The notes under the pieces: generated by a model
Told to the model about the DNA's origin: nothing
The model's database searches: none
Seen by the model: only the letters and a program-made list of their open reading frames with translations
Made by a program: the position numbers and the translations under genes
NCBI GenBank assembly: GCA_963665295.1
Contig: OY762209.1
Location: forward strand, 1,696,001-1,760,000
Direction: 5' to 3'
DNA: 64,000 nt
From: Syntrophorhabdaceae bacterium
GTDB lineage: Bacteria; Desulfobacterota; Syntrophorhabdia; Syntrophorhabdales; Syntrophorhabdaceae
Shown: positions 25,607-64,000 of the stretch, in pieces
How the letters are laid out: every line of letters starts with the position of its first letter
Numbering within the stretch: the first letter of the stretch is position 1

Positions 25607-25631
25607 AAGAAGGGGGCACGGGGCCGCGAAG

Positions 25632-28498: not shown

Positions 28499-29023
28499 TC
28501 ACCACTCGATGCCTTTCCGGGCCTTTACACCGGAGTTGTAAGGGTGTTTTACTTCACACATCTCGGTGACGAGGTCCGCCGTTTCCATGAGGCGCTTCGG
28601 GGCGTCCCGGCCCGTGACGAGCACGTTCAGGTTCCCGGGCCTGTTGCGGAGGACTTCCAGAGCCTCATCTTCGCTTAGCATGCCGTAGTTGATGACGTAG
28701 GTGAATTCATCGAGGATCACGAGGTGGTGGCGTCCCGCGGCAATGATCGATTTCGCGAGGTTCCATCCGTCCCGGGCCGCCTGGCGGTCCTTGTCAAGGT
28801 CGTCCGATTTCCAGGTAAAACCGTGGCCCGTAACGTGGACCTCGAGGAGATCTTTAAACCGTTCGGCGCTTATCAATTCCCCGTATTTCCAACTGCCCTT
28901 GATGAACTGTATCACGCACACTTTCAGGCCGTGGCCCATTGCGCGGAATGCGAGGCCCAGGGCCGCGGTGGTCTTGCCCTTGCCGTTGCCCGTATGCACC
29001 ATCAATAATCCTTTGTTTGCCAT
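28499..29023 (-). CDS. cobO: Cob(I)yrinic acid a,c-diamide adenosyltransferase (CobO/BtuR)
   Basis: TGNGKGKTTAALG, QFIKG, LDE, TGR and KHP motifs. Confidence 0.95.
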   Translation of the reverse strand: MANKGLLMVHTGNGKGKTTAALGLAFRAMGHGLKVCVIQFIKGSWKYGELISAERFKDLLEVHVTGHGFTWKSDDLDKDRQAARDGWNLAKSIIAAGRHHLVILDEFTYVINYGMLSEDEALEVLRNRPGNLNVLVTGRDAPKRLMETADLVTEMCEVKHPYNSGVKARKGIEW

Positions 29024-46999: not shown

Positions 47000-47288
47000 T
47001 GGAGCCTCCTTGGGTTTTGCGAACGGATTCGCGGATGCGCCTGTGTCCGCGCAGGCGGGTACAGGCGTGGATGCGGGCCTGTTTTGACATTCCGGACAAA
47101 GAAGACAGGTGGGGGGACCGGCAACCTTATAGAGGAAGCCTAAGCACGGGCGTCCCGGCAGTCAAGCAGGAGGACACCTGCCGTGGAAAACCACTTTTTT
47201 CAACCCCTTTGGACGACGCGGAAGGCCTGATACCGTAGACTCTTCCCATGAGCGCGTTACCAAAAACAGATTACGAAAGGACGGCATT

Positions 47289-47756
47289 ATGAAAGAGAAT
47301 TTTGAATCCACGGTCCGGTTCATCCTGAAAGAGGAAGGGGGCTACGTGACGGACCACGCGGGGGCCACGAAGATGGGCCTTACCGTCGGACTTATGAAGG
47401 CGCTGAAGCTTGACCTTAACCACGACGGGGCGGTGGACGGGAAAGACGTCACCCTTGTGGACGAGGAACTTGTGAGAAAGGTGTTCCTGGAGCAGTTCTG
47501 GAACCCTGTAGGCGGAGACGACCTCCCTCCCGGCATGGACCTCATGGCAGCGGATTTCGCCTATAACGCGGGCCCCAAGGCGGCGAGAGGGCTCCTTGCC
47601 CATGGGGACGTGAGGGATTATACCCTCGGGCGCATCAGGTATTACTGGCAGCTCAGGTGCAAGAATCCCGGGAAGTACAGGGATGATTTCGACGGCTGGA
47701 TAGGCCGCTCGATCCGTGCCTGGCAGAAGGCCGTGGAAATGCGGGCGGGGTCGTAA
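47289..47756 (+). CDS. Glycoside hydrolase family 108 endolysin
   Basis: EGGY, GATKMG, FW....D.LP, DFAYNAG and C-terminal GW..R. Confidence 0.88.
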   Translation: MKENFESTVRFILKEEGGYVTDHAGATKMGLTVGLMKALKLDLNHDGAVDGKDVTLVDEELVRKVFLEQFWNPVGGDDLPPGMDLMAADFAYNAGPKAARGLLAHGDVRDYTLGRIRYYWQLRCKNPGKYRDDFDGWIGRSIRAWQKAVEMRAGS

Positions 47757-47827
47757 GGTAAAGAAAAGTTTGCCGGGGCCTTCCCGGTGTGAAGGACACA
47801 TCAAATACCATACACGGAGGTTACTAC

Positions 47828-48277
47828 ATGGTGAAGGTTTTGGAAAGCTGGTTCGAGGAAGGGTTGCGGTTCGTGGAACACGATATTCTGCCTGTCGCGG
47901 GTCTTGCCCTCAATTTCATCCCCGCCGTCCCGAAGGTGGTGCCCGCAATCCTCTCAAAGATGCCGGAGCTTATCGCCACAGCGGAGAAGATGTTTCCGGG
48001 CAGCGGCAAGGGCGGACTCAAGCAGGATTTCTTCATGAAAACCGCGGAGCTTGTGGCAGCCGATGTGGAGAGCCTTTCCACAGGCGGTCAGGCGGGCACA
48101 TGGAAAGCTCTTCAGCCGAAGATAGAGCCCATCCTCTCCATGGCGATCACAGCCATCAACAGGTTCAGGCCCGGGACTTTCGATTGTGAGGCTGCGGATG
48201 ACGGCGCGGCCCTGTCGGTCGAGAGGCGCCAGGAGGATGAAATGAGGCGTGAGGAAGACCGGGGGCTCTCCCGGTGA
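47828..48277 (+). CDS. Phage protein, LL-H-holin-like motif
   Basis: Hydrophobic segment followed by AEKMFPGSGKGGLK; next to the endolysin; GGAGG RBS. Confidence 0.5.
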   Translation: MVKVLESWFEEGLRFVEHDILPVAGLALNFIPAVPKVVPAILSKMPELIATAEKMFPGSGKGGLKQDFFMKTAELVAADVESLSTGGQAGTWKALQPKIEPILSMAITAINRFRPGTFDCEAADDGAALSVERRQEDEMRREEDRGLSR

Positions 48278-48570
48278 GCTGGGCGGAGGTGTTGAAATCC
48301 CTCTCATTCTGGGGGCCGGGCATGGTGATCGCGGGGACTATGGTCGCCGCACTTTACAAACTTGCGGACAAGTATCTCGGCGAATTCATCAAAGCCCAGC
48401 AGGGACAGGCCTCCTCCCTCGCGGCCCTTGCTCAGGGCACGGAGGGCCTGCGGGATTCGGTGCAGGGTTTTGTAGCCGGGGATAACCGGGAGCACCGGGA
48501 AATGATCATTCTTCTCAAATGTGTGACGGAGAAACTGGAACGAATCGAGGAGCAAGTCTATGGATGTTAA
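48274..48570 (+). CDS. Phage membrane protein (single TM + coiled coil, possibly holin-like)
   Basis: N-terminal TM, heptad-like C-terminus; GTGA overlap with the previous gene. Confidence 0.6.
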   Translation: MSWAEVLKSLSFWGPGMVIAGTMVAALYKLADKYLGEFIKAQQGQASSLAALAQGTEGLRDSVQGFVAGDNREHREMIILLKCVTEKLERIEEQVYGC

Positions 48571-48859
48571 GAGAGAAAAATACCGCAGGATCAGGGGGGC
48601 CATGCTCAAATTCCTTGCCAAGGCCCACCCCGGCACCATCGACTCCAGGGTCCTCTACTACCTGCTGGACGACGTGAGATACACCATGACGGAGGACGAG
48701 TTCCTAAGCCACGTGATCTATCTCTCGGAACTCGGATACATGAGGATTGAGAGGCGGGAAGCGACGGGCGTGGAGGTGACCATGTATGTCATCACGCCCC
48801 AGGGTCTGAACCTTCTCGACGGCTTTGTCGCCGACGTCGGTGTGGACGTGAGGTTCTGA
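48560..48859 (+). CDS. Phage winged-helix protein (Mu gp26-like position)
   Basis: R..IRG.ML, YLSELGY and ITPQG.NLLDG pattern; precedes the terminase genes. Confidence 0.65.
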   Translation: MDVKREKYRRIRGAMLKFLAKAHPGTIDSRVLYYLLDDVRYTMTEDEFLSHVIYLSELGYMRIERREATGVEVTMYVITPQGLNLLDGFVADVGVDVRF

Positions 48860-48911
48860 TGGGCTGTCCAGGGTGCGCCGCACTTCCTGCGGCCTTGCAA
48901 GGCGGCGATGA

Positions 48912-49448
48912 ATGACCCGGAAGGCCTATGGGACGAAAGTACGGGAAGAGGCATACAGGATATGGCTCTCCTCGGGGAAAGACATGGCGAAAACGGTTCG
49001 GGAACTGGAGAAAAAATGCCTCCCTGTGGCGAGGCGGACGGTGGCGGCCTGGAGAGACCGGTATGGCTGGAGGGACCGCGCCCCCGCAATAAAGGAAGAG
49101 CCGGAGGAGGCCCGGACCGATGACGCGGCCCGCCTGATCGCCGACCTGGAGAAACAGAAGGCGAGATACGACAGTTTCTTTGACAGCCTCGGAGAAGCGG
49201 GGATCGACAATCAGGCCACCTACGCCTATACGACCCTCGTGAAAACCATTGCCGAGGTGCGCAAGAAAGCGGCGGAAAAGCCCGACCTCTATGCCATGAC
49301 GCCCGTGGTCATGGATGAGTTCGTGAAGTTCATCAAGGGAAAGGCTTCGAAGGGTTCAGGCAGTCCCGGCGGTTTGAACGGGAAGGACCTGACTGCCTTA
49401 GTCTTCGACCTTATCGACCGGTTTTTCGAAGAGGTCAAACCGGGCTGA
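48912..49448 (+). CDS. Putative terminase small subunit
   Basis: N-terminal HTH (VARRTVAAWRDRYGW), helical C-terminus; directly before terL. Confidence 0.7.
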   Translation: MTRKAYGTKVREEAYRIWLSSGKDMAKTVRELEKKCLPVARRTVAAWRDRYGWRDRAPAIKEEPEEARTDDAARLIADLEKQKARYDSFFDSLGEAGIDNQATYAYTTLVKTIAEVRKKAAEKPDLYAMTPVVMDEFVKFIKGKASKGSGSPGGLNGKDLTALVFDLIDRFFEEVKPG

Positions 49449-49526
49449 AGACGGCGGCGAGCCCGGAGCCTGAAAGACGGGCGGAAGTCATGAGCCGGAA
49501 GAGGCAAAAGATAGTGAAGAGTATGA

Positions 49527-51053
49527 ATGAAAGGGGTAGTGAGGACGGCTATGGCGAGTAAAATGGAGATCAAGCGAAAGATCGAGGCGGTTCGGGCCCA
49601 TATGCGCGCGGAGGCGACGCCCTTCGGGAACACCTCGGCGGAGGCGCGGGACGAAAGGGTCAGGAGGTGCCGGGCGGAAGACGGGTATTTCGCGAGGACC
49701 TATCTTCCCCATTACTTCAACCGCCCGTCGCCCGCGTTTCACCGGGAGATCTACGAGTTCGCGAAGGTAGAAGACGAGCCTGTCTTCATCGCGGCCCCGC
49801 GGGAGCATGCGAAGTCTACCATTGTGAGTTTCGAGACCCCTATCGAGGACATCTGTCTCGAGCGGAAGCAGTTCATCATCCTCATTTCCGACACGGAGGA
49901 CCTTGCCGCGGATTTCAATGTCTTCATCATGCTCGAACTGGAAGAAAACGAGCGGATAAGGGCGGACTTCGGGGATTTGAAAGGTCGTCAATGGAAAGCG
50001 GAGGATTTTACCACGAAAAACGGCATCCGGGTCAAGGCGCGGGGCCGCGGACAGCGACTGAGGGGCTTGAGAAACAGGCAGTACAGGCCGGACAGGGTTA
50101 TCATCGACGACCTGGAAAATGACAAGAACGTGAAAAACCCGAAGCTCGTCAAAGAGACGGTCAACTGGATTCTCACCACCGTCATGGGGTCCCTGGAAAG
50201 AAACTTTTCCATGATGATGATCGGGACCATCCTCGCGAGGAATTCCGTCCTCTCCCGGTTTATCGACGCCCTTGACGAGAAGGGGCGGGCCCTCTACCTG
50301 AGCCGGATATACCGCGCCGTCAGGGAAGACGGGACGCCCCTGTGGCCTGACAAGTGGCCCCTCGAAAGGCTCGAAAAGAAGAAGCGGCAGATAGGCTCCG
50401 TCAACTTCAACCAGGAATTCATGAACGACCCCAGGGACGATGAGGGCATGTTCCGGGAGGAATGGATCAGGCCCTACTATCCGGAGGAACTGTCAGGCAG
50501 GCAGCTCAGGGCATACACCTACATCGACCCGTCCATGGAGAATGGGGCGTCCACGGACTACAAGGCAATTATCACCATCGGCATGGACGGGGAAGGCGTA
50601 ATCTACATCCTCGACGCCTTCATCGGCCGGTGCAGTATAGACGCCATGGCGCGGATCGGCTATTCCCGGTACGAGGAATTCCGGCCCCTCGGGTTCGGCA
50701 TGGAAGAAAACGCCCTCGGAGAATTTGCACGGAGCCCTTTCAAGCTTGTGGCAAGGGAGAAGAACTACCAGCTCCCCATACGGGGGATCAAACACTCCAC
50801 ATCCAAGGAAGCCCGGATCGGGAGGCTGTCGGCCTTTGTGGAGAGGGGCATTATAAGGTTCCGGAGGGGCCAGGGGAACCAGGACCTCCTGGTGGAACAG
50901 CTTATCGCCTTTCCGTCGTCCACTGTCAATGACGACGGTCCCGATGCCCTGGAAGGGGCGGTGGCCATGGCCGAAGAAGGCGCGGGAGGCGTGGTGGAGT
51001 TCCAGTCCACGGGCAGGAGAAGGGAATCGACACGAATGGAGGCATATTTTTGA
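49527..51053 (+). CDS. terL: Terminase large subunit
   Basis: Walker A APREHAKST, Walker B IIDDLE, IGT coupling motif, nuclease YIDPS and DDGPDALE. Confidence 0.93.
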   Translation: MKGVVRTAMASKMEIKRKIEAVRAHMRAEATPFGNTSAEARDERVRRCRAEDGYFARTYLPHYFNRPSPAFHREIYEFAKVEDEPVFIAAPREHAKSTIVSFETPIEDICLERKQFIILISDTEDLAADFNVFIMLELEENERIRADFGDLKGRQWKAEDFTTKNGIRVKARGRGQRLRGLRNRQYRPDRVIIDDLENDKNVKNPKLVKETVNWILTTVMGSLERNFSMMMIGTILARNSVLSRFIDALDEKGRALYLSRIYRAVREDGTPLWPDKWPLERLEKKKRQIGSVNFNQEFMNDPRDDEGMFREEWIRPYYPEELSGRQLRAYTYIDPSMENGASTDYKAIITIGMDGEGVIYILDAFIGRCSIDAMARIGYSRYEEFRPLGFGMEENALGEFARSPFKLVAREKNYQLPIRGIKHSTSKEARIGRLSAFVERGIIRFRRGQGNQDLLVEQLIAFPSSTVNDDGPDALEGAVAMAEEGAGGVVEFQSTGRRRESTRMEAYF

Positions 51054-52393
51054 AAGACCGGATATTGAGACCTGTGACCGATGAAATCGCGACCGCGGAG
51101 AAGGACATCTACCAGGACTATATGGGAAAGATCAGGATCAACCCCGACCGGTTGCTCAGGCGGGAGTCCGGCGGAAAAGGCATCGAGCTTTACGAAGACC
51201 TGCTTCGCGACGACCAGGTGGGATCGAACCTCAATACGCGCAAGCTCGCGGTGGTGGGAAAGGAATGGGAGGTTGTCCCCGCCTCGGAAAGAAAACAGGA
51301 CCAGCGGATCGCGGGGTTCGTCAAAGAGGTGCTCCTCAGATGCAATTACGACGATGCCCGAAGGACTCTCCTCTCCGGCCTCGTCCTCGGGTTCAAACCC
51401 GTGGAGGTCATGTGGGAATATTCAGAAGGTGACGTCTGGATCAGGGAGATCATCGGCAAGGCTTCCCGGCGGTTTGTATTCGACCTCGCGGGACGGCTCC
51501 GCCTCCTGACGACCCGGGATATGGTCCAGGGCGAGGAGGTGCCGGAGAGGAAATTCATGGTCTACGCGAATGCCTCCGACAACGGTTCGCCCTACGGCGA
51601 CGGCCTGGGGAGGCTCCTTTACTGGCCCGTGTGGTTCAAGAAGAACGCCATCAAGTTCTGGATGACCTTTGCCGACAAGTTCGGGAGTCCCACTGCCATA
51701 GGAAAGTATCCGCCCGGCACGCCCGAGGCTCAGCAGGACCAGCTTTTGTGGGCCATTGACGCCATACAGCAGGAATCGGCCATCAAAATACCGAACAACG
51801 TGGAGATCGGTTTCCTGGAAGCGACCCGCTCCGGGTCGGTGAACACCTACGAGAGCCTTTGCGCATTCATGAACGCCGCCATATCCAAGGTGCTCCTCGG
51901 CCAAACCCTCACCACGGAGGTGGGCGCAGCAGGGAGCTACGCGGCCTCGCGCACCCACGAGACGGTGCGGGAGGATTACGTCAAGGCCGACGCGGACTCC
52001 CTGTGCGCCGCCCTCAACCGTCAACTCGTGCGCTGGATCGTGGACTACAACTTCCCCGGCGTGACCCGGTACCCCTTGGTCTGGATCAGGACGGAGGCGG
52101 AAAAGGACCTTAAACTCCTTGCCGACCGGGACAAGGTGATCATCGTAGACATGGGGGTGCCTGTAACCGCCGATTACATCTATAACACCTATGGAATCCC
52201 GAAGCCCGAGGACGGCGAGAAGCTTATAAATGCCCCTGCAAAAGGGCCTGTAAGCCCACAACCGGATCAGCCAAACCCGCAAAATGATAGGTCCGCAAGT
52301 TTTGCAGAACAGACCCCTGGGAACTCCGCGCTCATCGAGGCGCAACGGAACATAGACACTCTCGCGGGTAATGCCGTGAAACAGGCAGAATAG
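51050..52393 (+). CDS. Portal protein (DUF935, Mu gp29-like)
   Basis: FKKNA..FW..FADKFGSP..IGKY, ISKVLLGQTLTT and GSYA...H..VR. Confidence 0.93.
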   Translation: MKDRILRPVTDEIATAEKDIYQDYMGKIRINPDRLLRRESGGKGIELYEDLLRDDQVGSNLNTRKLAVVGKEWEVVPASERKQDQRIAGFVKEVLLRCNYDDARRTLLSGLVLGFKPVEVMWEYSEGDVWIREIIGKASRRFVFDLAGRLRLLTTRDMVQGEEVPERKFMVYANASDNGSPYGDGLGRLLYWPVWFKKNAIKFWMTFADKFGSPTAIGKYPPGTPEAQQDQLLWAIDAIQQESAIKIPNNVEIGFLEATRSGSVNTYESLCAFMNAAISKVLLGQTLTTEVGAAGSYAASRTHETVREDYVKADADSLCAALNRQLVRWIVDYNFPGVTRYPLVWIRTEAEKDLKLLADRDKVIIVDMGVPVTADYIYNTYGIPKPEDGEKLINAPAKGPVSPQPDQPNPQNDRSASFAEQTPGNSALIEAQRNIDTLAGNAVKQAE

Positions 52394-52653
52394 TCATGAG
52401 AAAACGTTATGTTTCGTCTATCGATGCGGGCGGAAATCGGCAGATGCTGCTTGTCGCGGAGAGCGCCCGAGGGCAATGGACGGGGTACACAGCCTTCTAT
52501 ACGCGGAATTACGGCTACATTGACGGCATTCGGAACGGGGTATTGCTCTATGGAAAATAGACGGGGTCAGGCGTCCCCCGTGCGGAACGTGGCCGGTCTT
52601 TGCTGTGTCGGGTGCACGGCCCACAGCATCGACATCACAAGTATAACACAGCA

Positions 52654-52899
52654 AAAGGACGTGTCAAGGGGCCGATCGACACCGCCCGGCTTCGGAACGC
52701 CACAAATTACAGAGCCTATGCGAACAGGGTGAAAATAGGCACGAATGCAGTGTATTCCGCCATTCATCAGTTCGGAGGCAAGACAGGCAGGAGCCCTAAA
52801 GTTACGATTCCCGCCCGGCCGTATCTCGCGGTCCACGATGAGGATTGGCCGGAGATCAAAAGGGTAATTGAGAACTATCTCACGAGGAGGAACGCATAA
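52654..52899 (+). pseudogene. C-terminal half of a Mu gpG-like virion morphogenesis gene
   Basis: DTARLRNA..Y....VKIGTN.VYSAIHQFGG..IPARPYL motif; no recognisable N-terminal half or RBS. Left boundary approximate. Confidence 0.75.
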
Positions 52900-54062
52900 T
52901 GCCAAACTACATCGAGCGCCGATTCCCCGTCTTTAAGGCGGGCACACACACGGATTCGGGAGGGCAGCAAAGAACCTGGACCCCTGCCGATCTCGACCAT
53001 ATGGCTTCGGCCTACGATCCCGCTCACCACGAAGCCCCCGTGGTGATAGGTCACCCCAAAGACAATTCACCGGCCTTCGGCTGGGTCAAGGGCTTGAGCC
53101 ACGAGGACGGCATGATCTACGCCCGGGCGGAACTTGTTCCGGAATTCGATGAAATGGTGCGGAAGGGCCTTTTCAAGAAGCGTTCCATCTCGCTCTATGA
53201 AGACGGCTCGCTGAGACATATCGGGTTCCTCGGGGCAAGGCCGCCCGCGGTAAAGGGGCTCCCTGATATCCGGTTCAACGACGGGAAGGAGGCTGCGGTC
53301 GTCATCGTGACGAACAGTCTCCAGGGACCGAACGGAAACGAAGTGCCCCGCGGCAAACCAAGGGGTTTCAAAGGCGATTACCCCGCCTTGACACTGTTTC
53401 GAAGCACGCTTCGGGGTATGGGCCCGCGGGGCAATCAACCACAAGGAGGTAGAGAAATGAAATTTTTCGAATGGGCCAGACAACTGGCCGGCAAGGAAGG
53501 GGTCACCCTCGAAGACCTGCCCCCGTCCTTTTCCGAGGCGGAGATTGAGAAGAGGATCGAAAAGGCCTTGACGGAGGAGCGAACGAGGATTGCCACGGGG
53601 TTTGCCGAGGCGCGGAAGGCGGAGGAGGAAAAACTGAGAAAGAGGGAAGAGGACCTCAACGCAAAGGAAAGAGAGGCGAGAAACAAGGGCATCGCCTCAT
53701 TCTGCGAGGCCCTGGAAAGGGAGGGGAGGCTTACCCCGGCTATGATGAAGGCGGGTATGGGCATGACGAACTTCCTCACCGCCATCGGTTCCATGGATGG
53801 GACCATCGAGTTCGGGGAGACAGACCACAAGACCTCGCAGACCCCCCTCGAGTTCATGGAGATGTTTCTCCGAGGGCTCCCCAAAGCCATAGAATTCGGC
53901 GAAGTGGCCTTTGCGGGCAAGGACCCCGGGGCAAAGGGGGACTCCGGGAAATGGGAAAGGCTCGTGGAGAGCTACATGGAAAAGAATCCCTCGGCGTCAT
54001 ACAGGGAAGCGATACTCATTGTGTCGAAGGAGAACCCGGAGCTTTTTCAGGAAAGGGAGTAG
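52899..54062 (+). CDS. Prohead protease/scaffold (Mu gpI/Z-like)
   Basis: FKAGTH, APVVIGHP, PAFGWV, KKRSIS and LRHIGFLGA.PPAVKGL, followed by a coiled-coil scaffold region. Confidence 0.9.
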   Translation: MPNYIERRFPVFKAGTHTDSGGQQRTWTPADLDHMASAYDPAHHEAPVVIGHPKDNSPAFGWVKGLSHEDGMIYARAELVPEFDEMVRKGLFKKRSISLYEDGSLRHIGFLGARPPAVKGLPDIRFNDGKEAAVVIVTNSLQGPNGNEVPRGKPRGFKGDYPALTLFRSTLRGMGPRGNQPQGGREMKFFEWARQLAGKEGVTLEDLPPSFSEAEIEKRIEKALTEERTRIATGFAEARKAEEEKLRKREEDLNAKEREARNKGIASFCEALEREGRLTPAMMKAGMGMTNFLTAIGSMDGTIEFGETDHKTSQTPLEFMEMFLRGLPKAIEFGEVAFAGKDPGAKGDSGKWERLVESYMEKNPSASYREAILIVSKENPELFQERE

Positions 54063-54109
54063 AGGGTCCGCGGTTCCAACGACCTAAAGGGTTAATACAA
54101 GGAGGCAAT

Positions 54110-54493
54110 ATGATAGGACAGACCACAGGATTGGAGAAATCGGTAAAGTGCGGGGCAGCCGTACCTGAGGCGTATACCATCGCCAAATTCGGCGCGGACG
54201 ACGATACCATGTCCCTTGCCACAGGGGCATCGGACATGCTCGCCGGTGTTTTCCAGCATACCACCACGGAGGCGGGAGAAGAGGTGCGCCTTATGATGGG
54301 AGGGGTGACGAAGATCAGACTCGGCGGGTCGGTCACCAGGGGGCATGCCCTCACGTCCGACGCGTCGGGCCGGGGAATCTCCGCCGCCCCCGCAACGGGA
54401 AGCAACGCCCGCGTTATTGGTGTGAGTCTCGCGAGCGGTGCCTCGGGAGACATTGTCACCATGCTCATCGCCCCGTCCGTAATACAGGGGTAA
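54110..54493 (+). CDS. Capsid decoration/cement protein (DUF2190-like)
   Basis: Gly/Ala-rich; GGSVTRG..LTSDASGR and ASGDIV; between scaffold and capsid; AAGGAGG RBS. Confidence 0.75.
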   Translation: MIGQTTGLEKSVKCGAAVPEAYTIAKFGADDDTMSLATGASDMLAGVFQHTTTEAGEEVRLMMGGVTKIRLGGSVTRGHALTSDASGRGISAAPATGSNARVIGVSLASGASGDIVTMLIAPSVIQG

Positions 54494-54549
54494 GAGCCAT
54501 TCAGGCGGCTTAAAGACGTTCGAGGGATTAAGAAAAGGAGGAAGACCAC

Positions 54550-55488
54550 ATGTCCGAACCGAGACAATTGCACGTAGACAGCGTATTATCGAATCTTTCC
54601 ATCAAATACAGGAACGAAGCCATGATCTGGCCCAGGGTCCTGCCCCAGGTTAAAGTGGGTTTCCGGTCAAACAAGTTCGACAGGTATAACAAAGAGGACA
54701 GCTACCGCCTCGCCGCCGACCATATCGGCCCGAAATCTCTCCCCAACGAAGCGGAGTGGGGAGTGACCCAGGACAACTATTCCGTGAAGGACCACGCCCT
54801 CGGGGAATGGCTCCCTCAGGAAAGCATAGACAACGCGGACAATCCCCTTCAGCCGGAGATGGATACCAACGATTTCCTGAACCTTCTCCTCGATATTGCC
54901 CAGGAGAGAAGAGTGGCGAACCTGGTTTTCAGCGCCGCCGCCTATCCCACGGGGAACAGGGTCAGCCTCTCGGGTACCTCCCAGTGGGGCGGGTCCGCGG
55001 ACGACCCCATAGGGAACCTCCTCACTGCGGTGGAATCCTGTTTCATCCGGGCCAACACAGTGGTAATGGGGGCGGAAACGTGGCTCACCTTCCGCAAGTT
55101 GCCGGAAATCCTCGACGCGGTAAAAGGAGGGTCCCGCTACCAGGGGAGCCCCGGAGGGCTTGCCACCACAGACGAGTGCCGGGGCCTCTTCGAAGTGGAG
55201 AACTGGCTCGTGGGGAGGGGCCGCTACATTACCTCTCCCGAAGGGCAGACCTCCGCGTTTTCAAGGCTGTGGGGCAAGCATTGCGCGGCCCTCTACGTGG
55301 ACCCGAACCCGGGGGTTAAGACCGTCACTTTCGGGGTTACCTTTTCCGAGATGCTCCGCCAGACCCAGCGCGATTTCGACCCCAAAAGGGGCATTAAGGG
55401 TGCCCACTATTTCAAGGTAGCCTGGAACTCGGACGAGAAGATCATCGCAAGCGACCTGGGGTATTTGATCGAGAACGCGGTACCGTAA
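54550..55488 (+). CDS. Major capsid protein
   Basis: VDSVLSNLSI.Y.N, ERRVA, W....DPI, WG...L.Y and FGVTF...GYLIENAV pattern; position in the head module. Confidence 0.88.
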   Translation: MSEPRQLHVDSVLSNLSIKYRNEAMIWPRVLPQVKVGFRSNKFDRYNKEDSYRLAADHIGPKSLPNEAEWGVTQDNYSVKDHALGEWLPQESIDNADNPLQPEMDTNDFLNLLLDIAQERRVANLVFSAAAYPTGNRVSLSGTSQWGGSADDPIGNLLTAVESCFIRANTVVMGAETWLTFRKLPEILDAVKGGSRYQGSPGGLATTDECRGLFEVENWLVGRGRYITSPEGQTSAFSRLWGKHCAALYVDPNPGVKTVTFGVTFSEMLRQTQRDFDPKRGIKGAHYFKVAWNSDEKIIASDLGYLIENAVP

Positions 55489-55504
55489 GAAAGGAGCTGA
55501 TCGA

Positions 55505-55669
55505 ATGCCCGCATACAGAGTGTTGGATGCACATATATACCACGACGGGGCCATGTACGGTCCCGGCGACATGGTGGAGCTTACGGAGGAACAGGCGGAA
55601 AAACTTCGTGTGGCAAAGGTGGCGGAGGGCCGGAAGAATCAGGAAAAGGGCGGCACGAGGAAACGATAG
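55505..55669 (+). CDS. Small phage protein following the capsid gene
   Basis: 54 aa MPAYRVLDAHIYHDGAMYGPGDMVELTEEQAEKL...; AAGGAG RBS; below the ORF-track length cutoff. Confidence 0.75.
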   Translation: MPAYRVLDAHIYHDGAMYGPGDMVELTEEQAEKLRVAKVAEGRKNQEKGGTRKR

Positions 55670-55686
55670 CGCGTCCCGGAGGAACC

Positions 55687-56118
55687 ATGTACAGTACCAT
55701 CGATGATTTGAAAAAACTGATCCCGGAGGAAACCCTCATCCAACTCACGGACGACGAGGGGAAAGGGGTGGTAGTGGTCACCCGGGCGGAAGAGGCTATA
55801 GCGCAGGCGGATGGGGAGATTGATTCGTATTGCGCCGTGAAATACGCGGTTCCCCTCGTCCCCGTCCCCGGGATCGTGAAGAAATGTTCCGTCGACATGG
55901 CCCTCTATAACCTTTACAGTCGTCGCGTGGAGGAGATCCCTTCCACCCGCGCCGACCGTTACCGGAATGCGGTCCGCCTTCTCGAGGGAATAGTGAAAGG
56001 GACCGTATCCCTCGGAGAGGTCCCCGGAGCGGAGGCTCCAAGGCAGGGCGATTGGATCGAATCGACCCGGGAGGAAAGTGAAAGGACCGTGACGAGGTCG
56101 AGGCTGGAGGGATTCTGA
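55687..56118 (+). CDS. Head-tail adaptor (DUF1320, Mu gp36-like)
   Basis: MYSTIDDL, LIQLTD, ADGEIDSY...Y.VPL and RY..AVR.LE.I.KG.VSLG. Confidence 0.9.
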   Translation: MYSTIDDLKKLIPEETLIQLTDDEGKGVVVVTRAEEAIAQADGEIDSYCAVKYAVPLVPVPGIVKKCSVDMALYNLYSRRVEEIPSTRADRYRNAVRLLEGIVKGTVSLGEVPGAEAPRQGDWIESTREESERTVTRSRLEGF

Positions 56119-56120
56119 CA

Positions 56121-56627
56121 ATGAGGACAGACACGGACGCGGGATGGGGGAGGGATGAATGGGCCGACCAGCCCTACGGCGGGTTATTGGATACCGTTGT
56201 CGCCATAGAAGAGGCGATAAAGGCCGGGATCAGGGATGCCATGCCCTATGTGAAGACGGTGGATACCTACGCGGGCCAGCTCGAAGAGGATATCTCCCGC
56301 CTTGTCCAACCCTTTCCCGCGGTCTTCGTTACTTACGGAGGCTCGGCGTTTGAGTGGGTGGACGGCCGCAGTTTCAGCGCTGCACCGGATTTTTCGGTTA
56401 TCGTGGCGGCCAGGGATTTGAGGGGCAAAGAGGATTTGAGGAAGGCCGAATACGGTTGCTACCGGATGGTCGCAGACGCCCTCGCCGCCATCGCCAACCA
56501 GACCTTCGGGCTGGACATCCTGCCCATGAAGCCCGTCAAGGTGGCGCTCATGCTGGTTTCAAGGACCGTGGCAGCCTATGGCATAGATTTTCAGACCGCC
56601 TTCGACACCGTCTATCCCCCGCAATAG
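56121..56627 (+). CDS. Tail terminator-like protein (Mu gp37/DUF1834-like)
   Basis: IEEAI, V.TY.GQ, PAVFV.Y.G and AY.IDF.T; follows the gp36-like gene. Confidence 0.8.
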   Translation: MRTDTDAGWGRDEWADQPYGGLLDTVVAIEEAIKAGIRDAMPYVKTVDTYAGQLEEDISRLVQPFPAVFVTYGGSAFEWVDGRSFSAAPDFSVIVAARDLRGKEDLRKAEYGCYRMVADALAAIANQTFGLDILPMKPVKVALMLVSRTVAAYGIDFQTAFDTVYPPQ

Positions 56628-56763
56628 AAGAAAGAGGAGGAAAGATAAGGAATATGAAGGAGGCGGAACCCGGTTCAGGGACGAGGTATTTGAAAGAGCC
56701 GCGAATACGGGGAATGCGACTGAAGGCAGCGATGATATGACAAGTTCAGAGGAGGGATAAACC

Positions 56764-57825
56764 ATGCCAAGCGGAGTGGCGGGAGTAGAAGTAAGAGGGG
56801 CATTGAAAAAGGCCTCGGCGTGGGGCGCGGCGGTGGCGTGCGCAACGGGTGACGGAATACTGATGTTGCCGTCGAGCCTCAGGAAGGACGCACCGATCGA
56901 AATCGACGATTCAATGGGCACATTTTTCAGCAAGGACGGCCTTCCCGGCACCATCAAGGTGGAGGGGGACCTTCTCGCGTATTTGAGGTATGACGGCCTG
57001 GACGTGCCCATCGCCCTTGCCATGGGCATTGCGGGCGCGCCGGCCCAGCAGGGGGCTGCCGCCGCCTATGGGTTCACCTACAGGTTCGCCACGTCGGTGG
57101 ATGGTTTGTTCGCGAGCTTCGCGCAACACATGAAGAACTACATCATGGAAATCCCGTCCCTCAAGGTGACCGGATTCACCATCAAGGGGGAAACGGGCAA
57201 AGCCGTGGAGATCACCTTTCACACGATCTCAATCAACAAGGTCTATGACTCGGCAGTCAATACGACTGCCACATTCGATAATGTCACCTATTTCGAGCAG
57301 CAGAACCGTATAAAGTTCTCCGAGTCGGTGTTCCGGATGAACGACCAGGGCGGCGCGGCCCTCGGCTCCGGTGACAGGATATACCCGAGTTCCTTTGAGC
57401 TTTCAGTGAAGAGGAAGCTGAAAGGAGAGTATACGGGGGAGTTCAAATACACCGGCGGCTCGAATGTGCAGGATTTGATTGATGAGCCCACCAATGACGG
57501 CATGCCGGAAATCAGTCTGAAAATAGTTTTTCCGAGGCACACGGGCACGACGTATCTCGCGGCCCTCGGCACGGATACGCGAAAGAAGATGGACATTACC
57601 TTTACGGGAGCGAATATCGCCTCCGCCTACAACAGGACTTTTGCGCTCCGGTTCCCCCACCTGCAACTCAGGAACGACGATCCCGCGGATGCGGCGGGGA
57701 TCATCAGGGAACCCCTGGAATTTATCGTTCACGGGGCAGTGACCGCGCCCGTGGGTATGACGGGGTGTACGGACCCCCTGTGGATAAGCGGGATCAATAA
57801 GCGCTCCACCGACCCTCTGGCATAG
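56764..57825 (+). CDS. Tail tube protein (non-contractile tail)
   Basis: Beta-rich 353 aa protein between terminator and chaperone; no sheath gene present. Confidence 0.75.
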   Translation: MPSGVAGVEVRGALKKASAWGAAVACATGDGILMLPSSLRKDAPIEIDDSMGTFFSKDGLPGTIKVEGDLLAYLRYDGLDVPIALAMGIAGAPAQQGAAAAYGFTYRFATSVDGLFASFAQHMKNYIMEIPSLKVTGFTIKGETGKAVEITFHTISINKVYDSAVNTTATFDNVTYFEQQNRIKFSESVFRMNDQGGAALGSGDRIYPSSFELSVKRKLKGEYTGEFKYTGGSNVQDLIDEPTNDGMPEISLKIVFPRHTGTTYLAALGTDTRKKMDITFTGANIASAYNRTFALRFPHLQLRNDDPADAAGIIREPLEFIVHGAVTAPVGMTGCTDPLWISGINKRSTDPLA

Positions 57826-57950
57826 GTGGCGTGTCTGAGGCGCATCCTCGATCGTTCCCTCGCGGACCGTGCCGTTTCGACCTTTGTCGTACCCACGGTG
57901 CCGGGGACTTAGGGGTTTCACGGAATAAGAACTGTCATAAGGAGGTATAC

Positions 57951-58364
57951 ATGGAGTTACGGGGATTGAAGAATGAAAGTTTACAGGGTTGGGTGCCCTT
58001 TGATGATGATACGGAGATACTCATTGCCTATGTGTCGAGGGAGGACCTGAGGGTGCTCAGAAAAGAGGCTACTTCCCTGAAGTTCATGAGGCACGGGAAG
58101 TCGGAAGAGACCGATGCGAAAGAGGCGGACAGGCTCCTGGGAAGAAAGGCCGTCAAGGACTGGCGGGCGCTTCCCGGGAGAAAGGGTTTTACCATGGGTG
58201 GAGAGCCCTTCAGGTATTCTCCGGAGAACTGTGATTTCCTCATGGAGAGGTTCAACGAATTCGCGAATTTCGTGAATGAGACCGCCATCGATTTTGTGAC
58301 CTTCGTGGAGGAGGAGAAGGAAGAAACGCTAAAAAACTCCTCAGCCACATCAGGGCAAGGATAG
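57951..58364 (+). CDS. Tail assembly chaperone (lambda G-like)
   Basis: AVKDW, YSPEN and acidic end EEEKEETLKN; AAGGAGG RBS; slippery site at the 3' end. Confidence 0.8.
   Translation: MELRGLKNESLQGWVPFDDDTEILIAYVSREDLRVLRKEATSLKFMRHGKSEETDAKEADRLLGRKAVKDWRALPGRKGFTMGGEPFRYSPENCDFLMERFNEFANFVNETAIDFVTFVEEEKEETLKNSSATSGQG
58331..58337 (+). other. Programmed -1 frameshift heptamer A AAA AAC
   Basis: X XXY YYZ in the correct frame; the -1 frame is open into the 58376-58645 ORF. Confidence 0.85.
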
Positions 58365-58645
58365 ACTTTCCTGGTGTGTCGTGCGAGGAATGCGAGCGGG
58401 GCCGGCAGATCGACGGCGACGTGCCCCGTTGCGAGACGGAGCAGGGCTGCATCATTCCGTCCCTGGAGGGGACGGGCGCGCGGGTCATGGCGATGAGGGA
58501 AAGATTGACAAGCCTCAAGGGCCTGGTCGACAGCGGAACTGTCCTGGCCTTATACGAAGCGACGAGGGAAGACCTGGAAATGCTTGCGAAGGTGGAAGAG
58601 GCGATGGGAACAATGAAACAACCGGGGAGTATGAAAAATGGCTGA
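58337..58645 (+). CDS. Frameshift extension of the tail chaperone (GT-like C-terminal part)
   Basis: LLSHIRARIDFPGVSCEECE...C...C...; no convincing RBS of its own; ends overlapping the tape-measure start. Confidence 0.75.
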   Translation, partial: LLSHIRARIDFPGVSCEECERGRQIDGDVPRCETEQGCIIPSLEGTGARVMAMRERLTSLKGLVDSGTVLALYEATREDLEMLAKVEEAMGTMKQPGSMKNG

Positions 58646-60338: not shown

Positions 60339-62521
60339 AGACCTTTCCTGCAAATTTTACCGCAGAAAAGGACAGGAAGACAGGCGCGGCCCCCGTGTGG
60401 ATACTCAAGTGCCCTTTCACAACCGGCACCGTCTATCTGAGCGACATGGTCTTTTCCCTTTCGTCCTGGAATGGGGGTATCACCACGAAGTCGTGGGTAA
60501 AAGAGTGGGGCGTGATCGATGAGGACATCTCCGGAGACCTGAGCCTCACCAAGGTGTCCGATTTCTCACTGGAGGTGATTATAGACCCCCACGCCTCGCC
60601 TCACATCGAGACGATCCTCGACGACCCCGCGAACAGTATCGAAACCACGGACATTGAACTCTACCTGTGGTTTCGGGGCCTCGATCCTTCGACGGACCCG
60701 CCCCAATTGATGTGGGTCGGGAACATCACGGACTACACAAAGCTCAATGAACTGGTCTACCGGCTCGATCTCGTGGACCAGTCAATGAAGCTCAACAAAT
60801 ACGTGGGCACCCTTCTGAACCAGGACCTTTTTCCGAGGATGGACCCGGCCGACGTGGGGAAGACAGCCAACATCATGATGGGGGAGGTGAAAGGGGTCCC
60901 CTGCCACGCGATAATCGCCGGGGGTGTGAGCACTCTCACCCAGGATATGAGCGCAACCTTTACAGGTACGAGGACCGTTGCGGACGGTTCACGGTTTCCC
61001 GACACGGATACCTTCTGGGTGAAGATAGGAGACGAGATCATCCGATGCTCCGGAGCGAGCGCCACCTATATCTACGTGACTGCCAGGGGAGAATACAACA
61101 CGACCCCCGCGGCCCATGGGATGGATGAGACCGTGATCGAATACACCCCGTCCGGTTTCACGTACCTCGTGGCCGATCACCAGGTTATCGATATCGAAAA
61201 TATCTATGTGGACGGGGAACTGGTGACAGAGGGCGTGACAAAGTATCCGTCCGGCCACGGCGCATGGACCACGAAGGCACAGGTTCTCCTGGCCCATGGC
61301 CCCTATAACCCCAACCCGGAGTATCTGAGCCCTGCGAGTACGGAGAGCAACAACATGACTGCGGGAAACCCCTCATACGCGATCGACGGGGATGAACACA
61401 CCCGCGCCGCATTCCCTGTGGCAGGCTATACCGCTTGGCTCCAGATCAACTTTTCCGCATCCCCGAGGAAGGATACGGTGATAAAACAGGAAGTGGAAGT
61501 ACTTCTTGAAGTGCCCTCGGGGTTGACTATTACGGTTACAGGGTGGACGCCCTCAAGCGTGGCCAACACGTCGGGCGTGAAACGGATGACCTTCACAAAG
61601 ACGGGCGGGGCGAGGACCGACCCCATTAACTTCACCAAGGCCACAAGTGCTCAGCCTGCGGGATACATCTACGAGGTTAAGCCCAAAAAGGTCTACGCCT
61701 ACAAGATCAGCCCGGGGGCCGGGACGGCCGCGAAAGTCAGCGTGGGGAGCGTGGTCACGGCGGATGTCCTCGCGACGGCCACGAACCTCCATTATCCGGA
61801 CATGGTGATCAGGAATTTCTTGAGCACCTATGGGGGATGGCCGGCCGACAATTTCGTTACCGACGTAGCCGCCCTGTTTGTCGCAAAGGGGTACCGGCTT
61901 TCCGTGGTAATCAACGAGTACAGGACCCTCAAGCAGTGGCTTTCAAGGATGGCCTTTCAGTGCCGGTGCTACTTCCGTTTCGCCCACGGCAAGGCGTACC
62001 TCCTCTATCGTCCCGACGCGATCACGAGCGGCAAGACGATCACCGACGCCATGGTCCGCATGGAAGAGAATTACAAGACCACGGTAAGGCTCGAAAGGTC
62101 CCGCCTCGATGAGGTGATAAACAAGATCAACCTCAGATTCTGTCGGGACTGGGCAAAATCGGGCAATGCCGCCTACAGGTATCTCTGCCGGGGGGACTCG
62201 ACCCACACGGACGGCTACGATGCGGCGAGCGTGACCCGCTATGGAGAAAAGGAACGGGCTGATCTCTTCAACTTCGATTTCGTGACCGTCTCCGCCATGG
62301 CCCGGGACCTCCAGGCCTTTTATCTGGCCCGGTATAAGGACAGAAAGCGGATCGTGACCGTGGAGGTCTTTCTTGACAACGGGGAACTTGAATTCGGGGA
62401 CGGCGTCGCCTTCGCTTCCATGGGAGATATGGCCGGGGAAGTCCAAAAGGTAAACATCACACCCGGAAGCGGGAGGGACATGAGAAACGACAAAATACAG
62501 TTAGTGATAAAGGAGTATTGA
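60335..62521 (+). CDS. Tail tip/hub-like protein
   Basis: 728 aa, ATGA-coupled to the TMP; C-terminal INKINL...SVTRYG...LEFGD pattern of siphoviral tail-tip proteins. Confidence 0.7.
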   Translation: MKTFPANFTAEKDRKTGAAPVWILKCPFTTGTVYLSDMVFSLSSWNGGITTKSWVKEWGVIDEDISGDLSLTKVSDFSLEVIIDPHASPHIETILDDPANSIETTDIELYLWFRGLDPSTDPPQLMWVGNITDYTKLNELVYRLDLVDQSMKLNKYVGTLLNQDLFPRMDPADVGKTANIMMGEVKGVPCHAIIAGGVSTLTQDMSATFTGTRTVADGSRFPDTDTFWVKIGDEIIRCSGASATYIYVTARGEYNTTPAAHGMDETVIEYTPSGFTYLVADHQVIDIENIYVDGELVTEGVTKYPSGHGAWTTKAQVLLAHGPYNPNPEYLSPASTESNNMTAGNPSYAIDGDEHTRAAFPVAGYTAWLQINFSASPRKDTVIKQEVEVLLEVPSGLTITVTGWTPSSVANTSGVKRMTFTKTGGARTDPINFTKATSAQPAGYIYEVKPKKVYAYKISPGAGTAAKVSVGSVVTADVLATATNLHYPDMVIRNFLSTYGGWPADNFVTDVAALFVAKGYRLSVVINEYRTLKQWLSRMAFQCRCYFRFAHGKAYLLYRPDAITSGKTITDAMVRMEENYKTTVRLERSRLDEVINKINLRFCRDWAKSGNAAYRYLCRGDSTHTDGYDAASVTRYGEKERADLFNFDFVTVSAMARDLQAFYLARYKDRKRIVTVEVFLDNGELEFGDGVAFASMGDMAGEVQKVNITPGSGRDMRNDKIQLVIKEY

Positions 62522-62955
62522 TGGCATTACCGGCAGATTCGGACTGGGGTGAAAGCGCCTGGGGAGGCTTCCTGTACGGAGCGGGGGGCCGGGGGATATT
62601 CGGCCATCCTGCCGATGATCCCACGGTGACGGTCGCAGTGAGGGTGCTCAGGGCATATCGTGACCCCGTGAAGAAGAAACAGCCCGTGGACTATTCCAAC
62701 GGGAACGACCCCTACATCTACGACAAGGGACTTACGGAGTATTCTTTCGTCGCACCCCTCAAGCTTTCCAGGGCGGATAAGACTGCGCTCAAAGCGTTTT
62801 ACGATACCTCGGCAAACGGCAAGGCCAACCAGGTCTATTACGCCGATCCGGAGGGAAATGAGCACGTGGTGCGCATCATGAACGATGAATTCGACTTCCC
62901 CGAAGAGGCATATGACAAATTCACGGGAACTCTCAACTTACGCAAGGAGGGATAA
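62521..62955 (+). CDS. Distal-tail (Dit/lambda gpM-like) protein
   Basis: ALKAFY....GKAN..YY.DP.G..HVVR pattern; AAGGAG RBS. Confidence 0.55.
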   Translation: MALPADSDWGESAWGGFLYGAGGRGIFGHPADDPTVTVAVRVLRAYRDPVKKKQPVDYSNGNDPYIYDKGLTEYSFVAPLKLSRADKTALKAFYDTSANGKANQVYYADPEGNEHVVRIMNDEFDFPEEAYDKFTGTLNLRKEG

Positions 62956-64000
62956 ATGGGATACGACGAAACAACAAATTTGAAGCTCAAGAAACCCACG
63001 GTGGGCACGGTGAAAACCGAGTGGCCCGGCTATATTAACGGCAATTTCGACACCTTGGACGCAGAGGTAGCCTCCCGGCACAAATCGGGAGACACATTCC
63101 CGGAGAATATAGTTCCCGACGCCGACAATACCCGCTCCGTAGGCTCGGCGATCAGGCGGTTTCTCGGCGGCTTCTTCAACGAGATTACCCTGGGCGGCGT
63201 GACGCGTTCGACTTGGCCATCTCCCGGATCAGGATCACAGAGCATGGACGATACGTATAACAACGGGAGTCAGGTGGATGTGGACAACACGGACGAAGTG
63301 CGCCGCCTGGGAGCGGGCAAAAAGTGGAAACTGGTGAACGCTGACGGGTCAATCACCTACATGGAAGCGGAGGGAGGGGCCGGGATTACCCTCACCCCTC
63401 ACAATGACGTAACCCATGCCAATGAGATCGCCGGTGCGCGATTCGGGGAGTGGAGCCAGGGAACCCTCGAAAACGTGGGGGCTGATCTCGCCTCGAACGG
63501 GGGATTCACGGCCGATACAACGGGCTGGACCCCTGACCTTGCCGCCCTTGCGAGCATAGCCGGGGGGCAAAGCGGAAACTGCCTCGAATTGACCCGGTCG
63601 AGTTGGAGCATTCAGACGGCAAGGACAGCGCTGACAGGGCTCACCATAGGGAAGCTGTACCGGATGACCGTGTATGTCAAGAGCGGTACTTCCGGCAATG
63701 AACCGTTCAATATATCCGTCCTCGATGCTTCGGGCGCTACGCGTTATGGTCTCACATCCGGAGTATCATCCGGTTCCTGGGTGTCATATTCAGTGACAAT
63801 CACCGCCCCCGCGACAACCGCCATGCTCTCCCTGGAGAAGAACACCGCCACTGCCGGGACCATGCTGTTCGATTCGGTATCCTTCTACGAAGTGACGCCC
63901 GGCTGCGTGGGAGCCGACACTAAAGGGCCTGATGGCTGGCTCAAAAGCGTGGGACTGACAATCTACAGGGAGCATCCGGGGACAAACACGCAAAGCGGGT
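62956..64000 (+). CDS. Tail fibre/receptor-binding protein with carbohydrate-binding-like module (truncated by window end)
   Basis: Open from ATG 62956 (AAGGAGG RBS) to the window end: TTNLKLKKP..W...IN.NFD.LD N-terminus, then NGGF..GW..LYRMTVYVKS..W..YSVT..FDSVSF. Absent from the ORF track because it has no stop. Confidence 0.75.
   Translation, partial: MGYDETTNLKLKKPTVGTVKTEWPGYINGNFDTLDAEVASRHKSGDTFPENIVPDADNTRSVGSAIRRFLGGFFNEITLGGVTRSTWPSPGSGSQSMDDTYNNGSQVDVDNTDEVRRLGAGKKWKLVNADGSITYMEAEGGAGITLTPHNDVTHANEIAGARFGEWSQGTLENVGADLASNGGFTADTTGWTPDLAALASIAGGQSGNCLELTRSSWSIQTARTALTGLTIGKLYRMTVYVKSGTSGNEPFNISVLDASGATRYGLTSGVSSGSWVSYSVTITAPATTAMLSLEKNTATAGTMLFDSVSFYEVTPGCVGADTKGPDGWLKSVGLTIYREHPGTNTQSG

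Follow-up and report, generated by a model that had tools for sequence, protein, structure and literature searches.

A Mu-derived lysis, head and tail operon with a remote repressor-Mor switch, probably domesticated, in a Syntrophorhabdaceae genome

We analysed a 64,000-nucleotide stretch of a Syntrophorhabdaceae genome (the window, G000:C1:1696001-1760000), the right end of which carries a lysis, head and tail operon of the type found in Mu-like siphophages. The source genome, G000, is a single contig of 5.51 Mb and is 98% complete. The operon spans positions 47289 to 67187 (19.9 kb), running past the edge of the window, and has host genes on either side (Table 1). The first-pass annotation, made from the letters of the window, placed the start of this module at its endolysin, 289 bp from a divergent host hydrolase, and this is where it begins, with an alpha/beta hydrolase starting at 46999 (-) and the endolysin at 47289 (+). 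Early genes immediately downstream, which that annotation had left possible, are ruled out: beyond the window the operon ends at 67187, 34 bp from the host gene arcC, with cfa and cysE following. The gaps between the outer genes and the host stops measure 30 and 34 bp. Judged against the size of Mu ends and the anatomy of the Mu end and pac region, such gaps would be too small for Mu-sized ends, and they appear to leave no room for a right end.

Open reading frames (ORFs) of the cluster were assigned to families with PHROG, Pfam and NCBIfam profile scans, which upstream of the endolysin covered nine ORFs from 38.7 kb on and 28 ORFs in a second scan. No transposase was recognised in the cluster or in the scanned upstream ORFs, and in the 47 kb left of the endolysin the scanned ORFs belong to host families or to no family, the sole phage-family exception being the divergent hydrolase, which drew PHROG esterase matches. 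A Pfam DDE_2 search gave zero matches anywhere, the controls included, and so carries no information. The 64-kb window contains no tRNA, and the GC content of the cluster equals that of its flanks. Contigs from two sequencing runs, X1 and X3, cross the junction from hydrolase to portal with 0 differences, which rules out an assembly artefact at the left junction, although X1 may be the source data set.

The proposal that no early genes lie upstream holds within the window, but a repressor, Gam and a late activator lie a short distance outside it. Searching G000 with the early genes of an intact prophage in G002, a member of the same genus, revealed a transposase-free repressor-Gam-Mor module 4-6 kb left of window base 1 (genome positions 1689851-1692001), with 51,288 bp between Mor and the endolysin. 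Its gene order and orientation are those of the prophage, the repressor being divergent from Gam and Mor. G000 was compared with the remaining three genus members, G001 (100% complete, 140 contigs), G002 and G003 (93% complete). RpoB is 90% identical between G000 and G001 and 88-90% among G000, G001 and G002, the branching of which is not resolved in an RpoB tree (support 53). In G001, the module occupies the orthologous locus between the same PAS/HD-GYP and tpx genes. The repressor, Gam and Mor are 70%, 69% and 84% identical between the two genomes, compared with 66-78% for host neighbours, and the proportion of synonymous differences in the switch genes is 0.69-0.85 (saturated), compared with 0.63-0.85 in 11 host genes, with nonsynonymous divergence (dN) of 0.09-0.22. 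Neither transposase A nor B lies beside the module repressor in G000 or G001; the G002-type A was found in neither genome, and the first 196 aa of the p2-type A match only p1 and p2, two Mu-like prophages located elsewhere in G000 (at 0.43-0.47 Mb and 5.43-5.47 Mb, respectively). The simplest reading of these comparisons is that the transposase was lost before G000 and G001 split and that purifying selection has acted on the module from then on.

Phage repressors of this type undergo RecA-stimulated self-cleavage through a Ser/Lys dyad acting on an Ala-Gly site; the dyad is present in all six module repressors and the Ala-Gly site in five of them. A candidate operator palindrome is common to the G000 and G001 modules, and the G000 genome contains one perfect copy and one copy with a single mismatch. 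Ahead of the endolysin, the late-promoter-like element aligns without gaps with the region upstream of the G001 cluster at 41/75 identities; in 200 shuffles the best 75-nt window reached at most 38 identities (0/200 reach 41). In three intact prophages, a GAAGTnCTTC palindrome stands behind mor instead of this shared element, and the recognition helix of the module Mor differs from that of their Mor proteins. From the promoter logic of the Mor/C family, we infer that the module Mor acts on the cluster promoter.

The G001 cluster is 15 kb long, begins at the endolysin, lacks gpF and gpG, and has host genes on both sides. Capsid and TerL queries match nothing else in that genome, those for Mor and Gam match the module alone, and neither gpF nor a match for two transposase queries was found there. 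With a single Mor, Gam and capsid, the G001 cluster is therefore the only Mu-type late operon found for the only Mor. Among 11 protein trees (FastTree supports; the p2 capsid, which is of another type and only 26-31% identical to that of the cluster, and rows with <60% coverage were excluded), the G000 and G001 clusters are sisters in eight (supports 84, 99, 58, 54, 73, 95, 56 and 99), and conservation is among the highest for capsid, portal and TerL, at 76-87%. The argument for domestication rests on a shared transposase-free ancestor, a promoter in common, and genes for which p2 cannot be the source, namely TerL, capsid, gp25, gp26 and a head protein, all of which are intact and, in trees, sister to those of G001. 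The two loci are intact and have diverged like host genes, and the transposase, the B protein and, apparently, the room for phage ends are gone. It is highly probable that this Mu-derived system has been domesticated by its host, and the apparent inheritance of both pieces intact by a sister species suggests that the host uses the particles.

The structural genes were described at first pass as intact, with ribosome-binding sites (RBSs) or overlapping starts, and the motifs, scans and junctions agree. TerL carries the motifs APREHAKST, VIIDDLE, YIDPS and DDGPDA, which are identical among the cluster, G001 and the intact G002 prophage. In the tail chaperone, the slippery sequence AAAAAAC (position 58331) leads into a -1 frame of 104 codons that is homologous to its counterpart in the G002 prophage, and the junctions between genes within the operon show RBS-like runs or stop/start overlaps. 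All 20 ORFs (5958 codons) are open, whereas about 31 stops would be expected at just 0.05 neutral substitutions per site. The 149-aa protein of the lysis region has no family match but resembles LL-H holins and may be a holin; the names gp25 and gp26 follow Mu gene order, and the gp26-position gene matches phrog_436/NF050184. The capsid has a single PDB sequence match, 3bjq, and the predicted structure of the tail tip is of low confidence (pLDDT 40). No toxin or immunity gene was recognised within the operon.

Table 1 Features of the late operon (window coordinates) and of the switch module (G000 coordinates).
Feature	Position	Strand	Basis or identity
Late-promoter-like element	47185..47250	+	GGxAAACxxxTTTTxTCAxxCCCTTT, 25 nt, TAGACT (-10-like), CATG
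Endolysin, glycoside hydrolase 108 (GH108)	47289..47756	+	PHROG/Pfam/NCBIfam scans
Lysis-region gene, 149 aa, possible holin	47828..48277	+	No family match; 33% to G001
Two small genes at Mu gp25 and gp26 positions	48274..48859	+	86% and 79% to G001
Small terminase (TerS)	48912..49448	+	Position and homology; 41% to G001, 60% to G002
Large terminase (TerL)	49551..51053	+	ATPase and nuclease motifs intact
Mu-type portal	51050..52393	+	PF06074; 83% to p2, 76-78% to G001
Remnants of gpF 3' end (PBECR2 part) and gpG 3' half	52375..52899	+	Homology, family scans
Protease/scaffold, 127-aa head protein, major capsid protein, 54-aa gene	52899..55669	+	Family scans, homology
Major capsid protein	54550-55488	+	87% to G001
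Mu gp36 adaptor, gp37, tail tube, tail chaperone with -1 frameshift extension	55687..58645	+	Family scans
Tape-measure gene, 566 codons	58638..60338	+	Homologous ends, open frame
Tail-tip genes, 728 aa and 145 aa	from 60335	+	79-93% to p2
Fibre/receptor-binding gene with CBM4/9	ends 64749, past window edge 64000	+	
Two further tail genes	end at 67187, outside window	+	
Repressor, CI type, helix-turn-helix and S24, 244 aa	G000:C1:1689851-1690585	-	PF07022+PF00717
Candidate operator palindrome TTGACAA-N3-TTGTCAA	G000:C1:1690601-1690617		Over rightward promoter
Gam	G000:C1:1691073-1691573	+	PF07352
Mor	G000:C1:1691687-1692001	+	PF08765

Intact relatives show what the ancestor would have looked like. 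The G002 prophage runs from a repressor, a ner-like gene, transposase A, B, Gam, GemA and Mor to endolysin, TerS, TerL and portal, followed by full gpF, full gpG, capsid and a 908-aa tape measure; its TerL and capsid are 78% and 76% identical to those of the cluster. An insertion sequence at G002:C53:85116-86962 (L016), with TnpB-like and serine-resolvase-like ORFs named by the look of their sequences, interrupts the gene at its gp26 position. In G000, p2 (G000:C1:5432343-5466215, L018-L020) appears intact, with transposase A/B, Mor, lysis genes and a non-contractile tube, and its portal and tail-tip genes are 83% and 79-93% identical to those of the cluster, with a 1034-aa tape measure. The other prophage, p1 (G000:C1:434632-474379, L021-L023), also appears intact and carries transposase A/B, Mor, lysis genes and a sheath-like tail region. 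Paralogs of two fibre-region genes (46-52%) occur at G000:C1:2472846-2474663, and a fourth Mor of the genome at G000:C1:2516068-2516292. The window system resembles D3112/JBD30-like and B3-like Pseudomonas phages, the G002 prophage and p2 in the order repressor ... gam, gemA, mor, endolysin, terS, terL, portal, gpF, gpG, protease, capsid, gp36, gp37, tube, chaperone, tape measure, tip. Its TerL is 33% identical to that of the nearest cultured transposable siphophages (D3112/JBD30-like) and its portal 36-42% (matches including B3-like phages), compared with 73-83% to the intact prophages. Unlike transposable siphophages, however, it lacks A/B, ner, gemA and apparently room for ends, its gpF and gpG are cut, its tape measure is 566 aa long, its mor is 51 kb from the operon, and its late promoter bears another motif. 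The first-pass assignment to a Mu-like lineage unlike RcGTA stands, as the scans gave a Mu-type portal, gp36 and gp37 and no GTA-named family.

Several parts have been lost or altered. Most of gpF is gone, although the gene is not wholly missing as had been reported: a 3' remnant at 52375-52558 is 64% identical to residues 316-376 of the G002 gpF (G002:C53:90832-91962, L017:3832-4962), a MuF-PBECR2 nuclease fusion. The window preserves just the end of the PBECR2 part, and the C-terminus of the p2 gpF differs from that of G002. The halving of gpG was correctly read, with only its C-terminal half recovered in family scans. The tape measure, described at first as eroded, is better called a gene with a replaced middle, because its 566-codon frame is unbroken and both ends are retained. 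Its start and last 60-90 aa are homologous to those of relatives and enclose a low-complexity middle of about 440-470 aa, which has no homolog in p2, G002 or the rest of the genome and contains only two short direct repeats. This middle has 0 stops in frame, compared with 15 and 12 in the remaining plus-strand frames, and it has the best codon score among six frames and a host-like GC content at third codon positions. In G001 the tape measure is 197 aa.

A number of observations weigh against vertical retention of the whole system by the host. Three of the eight sister-pair supports are low (54-58), and the portal, gp37 and chaperone trees join the cluster with p2 instead (supports 36, 76 and 69). 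Synonymous divergence (dS) from p2 is just 0.25-0.59 for gpG and two tail genes, and the cluster and p2 have 17 exact tracts of >=30 bp in common. Given these low dS values, tree positions and tracts, part of the intactness of the cluster may be borrowed from active phages. The first-pass annotation looked to a shared locus in relatives, and this failed for the immediate flanks, which are unlike between G000 and G001: hydrolase and arcC have no match listed for G001-G003 at E 1e-15, and the idea that the cluster shares the same flanks in congeners is rejected. Only the neighbourhood is shared, with five orthologs from 1.77-1.81 Mb of G000, including gap-pgk-tpi, on the G001 cluster contig. Among GTDB genomes, the system was found in two of the four of the genus, with an intact prophage in place of the reduced system in G002 and no match in G003, and a search of a further 65 genomes of the family revealed no reduced cluster. 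Portal and protease also adjoin without an intervening gpF in G201, in which Mor is on the same contig, and gpF loss is therefore rejected as a sufficient marker of domestication. The differing flanks, together with the low dS and exact tracts shared with p2, suggest that the cluster probably moved in one lineage and was patched by recombination. Low pairwise dN/dS by itself cannot separate domestication from phage ancestry. The claim of selective host retention thus fares differently for the two loci: vertical purifying selection is seen for the switch, with its orthologous position, saturated dS and low dN, and the cluster has eight of 11 trees and the promoter in its favour, yet its flanks differ, it has recombined with p2, and it was found in two of the four genus genomes.

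The same observations could describe a slowly decaying prophage, in which only the switch (or Gam) is useful and the structural block is recombination-patched debris of successive phages. Differing flanks, mosaic trees, gpF and gpG remnants and a patchy distribution would all follow, and pairwise dN/dS among phage genes would be low whatever their later fate. However, G000 and G001 share a derived promoter, the endolysin start and the losses; the genes that p2 could not have supplied are intact and group with those of G001; the conservation of Mor, which at 84% exceeds that of most neighbouring host genes, implies a target; and the tape-measure frame is open across about 440 non-homologous codons. 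We consider decay improbable.

By gene content, the domesticated system combines phage-derived head, packaging and tail genes with no replication or integration functions, as in a gene transfer agent (GTA), and its putative regulators are unlinked, as in multi-locus GTAs, the switch being 51 kb away in G000 and on a separate contig in G001. It has the virion and regulatory genes of an active Mu-like prophage in Mu order but no A/B beside the repressor, and it carries the head and packaging genes that tailocins lack. A damage-inducible particle of this sort that would package host DNA and work like a GTA is our preferred reading, at about even odds. In the mechanism we envisage, a Mu-like transposable siphophage would have lysogenised an ancestor of the lineage and then been reduced to two host-kept loci. 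The repressor would silence the Gam-Mor promoter until DNA damage and activated RecA cause its cleavage, and Mor would then switch on the distant operon promoter in trans. Heads would assemble, and TerL, left without a phage end or a replicated phage genome to work on, would cut the host chromosome for headful packaging and take any DNA it encountered, while Gam would shield free DNA ends. Mu-like phages themselves package flanking host DNA. A short or abnormal tail would be added, and the endolysin would free the particles. RcGTA DNA is taken up through competence proteins, and by analogy delivery here would probably be to the periplasm only, followed by uptake through the competence machinery.

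Delivery is the weak step of this mechanism, because gpF, gpG and the tape measure serve ejection, tail completion and tail length, and these are the parts that were lost or altered. The tape-measure middle looks incapable of acting as a normal ruler or channel and, among parallel clusters in Nitrospirota described below, G085 lacks a tape measure and G088 lacks a tube; DNA delivery may therefore not be the selected trait. The TerS protein also departs from the GTA pattern. Loss of its N-terminal DNA-binding domain, as seen in RcGTA TerS, is a proposed GTA hallmark (PMC6854486), but the TerS proteins of the window and G001 retain the domain. In the window protein it is a three-helix domain (AlphaFold helices 8-20, 25-34 and 41-50, pLDDT ~90), for which a fold search gave no significant match. 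These points leave room for a domesticated particle that does not transfer genes and serves instead as a DNA-filled, PBSX-like particle whose tail tip and fibres kill or block neighbours, as a decoy for receptors, or as a means of releasing extracellular DNA by lysis. The lost tape measure, gpF and gpG, set beside fibres and a tip that were kept and recently refreshed from p2, fit such a function, as do the two Nitrospirota clusters without tape measure or tube. The repressor-activator switch likewise resembles the PrtR/PrtN pair, through which pyocins are placed under damage-inducible control. PBSX is described as a particle that packages DNA without injecting it (PMC12946183). Against this, tailocins drop the head (PMC4542187), whereas capsid, portal and TerL are among the best conserved genes here, and the operon has no recognised toxin or immunity gene. 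We regard a particle without gene transfer as rather unlikely.

The prophages p1 and p2 bear on two further explanations. In one, the system would be an anti-phage device, with the repressor conferring immunity to Mu-like phages and the operon, tripped by infection damage, lysing the cell early or disrupting assembly of the invader by supplying an additional capsid and terminase along with a defective tape measure. The presence of related Mu-like prophages in the same genome, an intact S24 dyad, and a tape measure that retains only its docking ends are compatible with this. Even so, the module repressor is only 41% identical to the G002 phage repressor, over 81 aa only, and a separate candidate operator accompanies it. 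The two prophages persist alongside the module, and interference would not require 20 intact genes, which makes the explanation quite improbable. In the other, the system would be a resident helper for satellites or for p1 and p2, kept by selfish elements rather than by the host. Two orphan TerS-like genes, at 0.688 and 0.813 Mb (G000:C1:687808-688314, L221, and 813271-813777, L222), could be read in this way. Each is 43% identical to the cluster TerS, and the two copies match at 96% across 926 bp, with host genes and insertion-sequence-like debris around them, and one adjoins an ORF that by the look of its sequence is reverse-transcriptase-like. However, inspection of their surroundings by eye, with no family scan made, revealed neither an integrase nor a replication gene, and G001 retains the system although no other Mu-like prophage was found there. 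The chance that the system is such a helper is very slight. Near the second copy, at G000:C1:819822-823582 (L222), a 506-aa ORF and a 116-aa ORF are duplicated in direct tandem.

Two features nearer the window lie apart from the system. Positions 15448-29023 hold a metal-uptake region with TonB, NikR, two TonB-dependent receptors, two ABC transporters and CobA. Between the switch module and the window start, at G000:C1:1693925-1694015, ARAGORN predicts a tRNA-Gly(ACC) of an odd 91 nt that is probably false or a pseudogene.

Proteins from beyond the genus suggest a wider occurrence. Close capsids occur in 4/69 family genomes; the fourth, in G017, belongs to a prophage that is rearranged and has homologs of A and B. 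In a protein collection, a single clade (support 88) unites the module Mor with 21 further Mor clusters of 71-97% identity, the repressor has 11 clusters at 65-71% before a fall to 54% (partial matches aside), and in a 17-member capsid cluster the 14 other listed members are 86-89% identical to the window capsid, with 15 listed members 85-100% alike. These protein matches suggest that 11-21 further lineages may carry the system. By inference from equal contig sizes, Mor, repressor and capsid are assigned together to one contig of 680,306 bp, repressor and capsid to one of 5,627,377 bp, and Mor is paired with the repressor six times. In viral contigs, the best capsid is 78% identical (31 loci) and the best TerL 64% (32 loci); pattern scans that detect close relatives only gave a best module-type Mor of 67% (5 loci) and no module-type repressor. 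ComEC is found in 5/5 genomes but is not discriminating, because it is also present in 10/14 controls.

A parallel arrangement occurs among capsid relatives in Nitrospirota. Five loci (L100, L106, L107, L108 and L114), from Nitrospirae metagenome-assembled genomes and one metagenome contig, contain clusters that directly adjoin host genes at their start, with no gpF behind the portal, an M15 endolysin in each of the three that were scanned, and a tape measure that is short or absent where the locus reaches so far. In L114 (15247-19420), chaperone and short tape-measure-like genes occur twice in tandem. Four of the five loci have genomes, each with one Mor, within an orphan repressor-Mor pair, and this pair adjoins cysK in five genomes, including G133. 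Of 151 genomes sampled evenly across that class, 26 have a Mu portal and 25 have Mor; the orphan pair occurs in three, among the Mor loci fetched (30/31 matches), and gpF stands behind the portal at 9/27 portal loci. Five further loci (L202, L205, L216, L217 and L218, in G099, G143, G213, G180 and G145) have a Mor 44-62% identical to the Nitrospirota module Mor with no repressor match within 1.5 kb, and are possibly further arrangements of the system. The five Nitrospirota clusters have a common promoter motif, found in L106 at a different host locus; these five sequences served to define the pattern and match it (5/5) by construction, and it has 0 matches in four other loci and 0 in G000. In 3/3 aligned cluster TerS proteins, the N-terminal ~55 residues kept in two prophage relatives are missing. 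The Nitrospirota module repressors are just 27-29% identical to that of G000, TerL is of another type, and tree positions are separate, from which the split architecture in these five genomes is probably an independent domestication.

With more doubt than confidence, we offer the generalisation that Mu-like phages may have been domesticated repeatedly, in several phyla and by one route, forming an undescribed class of damage-inducible GTAs in anaerobes in which G000 would be an intermediate. Along this tentative route, transposition genes and ends would be lost, and a RecA-cleavable repressor-Mor switch would part from a relocatable operon with its own Mor promoter. gpF would be lost and the tape measure would shrink, and older cases would lose the TerS DNA-binding domain. 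At the stage of G000, the system would still swap tail and portal modules with live prophages.

Known systems share parts of this organisation. The Caulobacter GTA (CcGTA) and RcGTA are multi-locus, with a structural cluster and unlinked regulators (PMC11841831), and in Caulobacter the LexA/cI-like repressor RogA silences the direct activators GafYZ (PMC9632790). The window system resembles both in having a structural cluster, unlinked putative regulators and no replication genes. It differs in its Mu-like, transposable ancestor (Mu portal, gp36, gp37, Gam and Mor), in a TerS that keeps its N-terminal domain, in its Syntrophorhabdaceae host, and in a function that is so far a prediction. Its activator, unlike that of CcGTA, belongs to the Mor/C family, and its repressor retains the cleavage residues that RogA lacks. 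PBSX of Bacillus subtilis and FpGTA of Faecalibacterium are defective phage-derived particles that package host DNA, and FpGTA, the tail of which is minimal or absent, is encoded by two operons separated by ~125 kb (PMC12946183). The window system is likewise phage-derived and defective, would package host DNA, and is split as in FpGTA; those two come from other phage lineages and Gram-positive hosts and have demonstrated particles, and FpGTA TerS has no DNA-binding domain, unlike the window TerS. The R-type syringacin is a host-kept phage module with a Mu-like tail (PMC4542187). Like syringacin and the pyocins, the window system is a host-kept phage module under repressor-activator control, here predicted to be damage-inducible; unlike tailocins, which are contractile and have no head or packaging genes, it keeps the head and has a non-contractile tube.

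In the portions of the literature available, we found no description of a Mu-derived GTA or of an orphan repressor-Mor switch. Sequence does not yet allow GTAs to be distinguished from the debris of prophages (PMC11841831), and several GTA-like particles outside the Alphaproteobacteria have not been linked to their genes (PMC12946183). The system described here offers a sequence signature, consisting of an orphan repressor-Mor switch at a fixed host locus and a transposase-less operon with a lineage-specific Mor promoter, and a predicted inducer, which would be DNA damage or Mor over-expression. If the proposed function is true, these anaerobes would own a host-controlled route of DNA exchange, and Mu-like phages would be a recurrent source of such machines.

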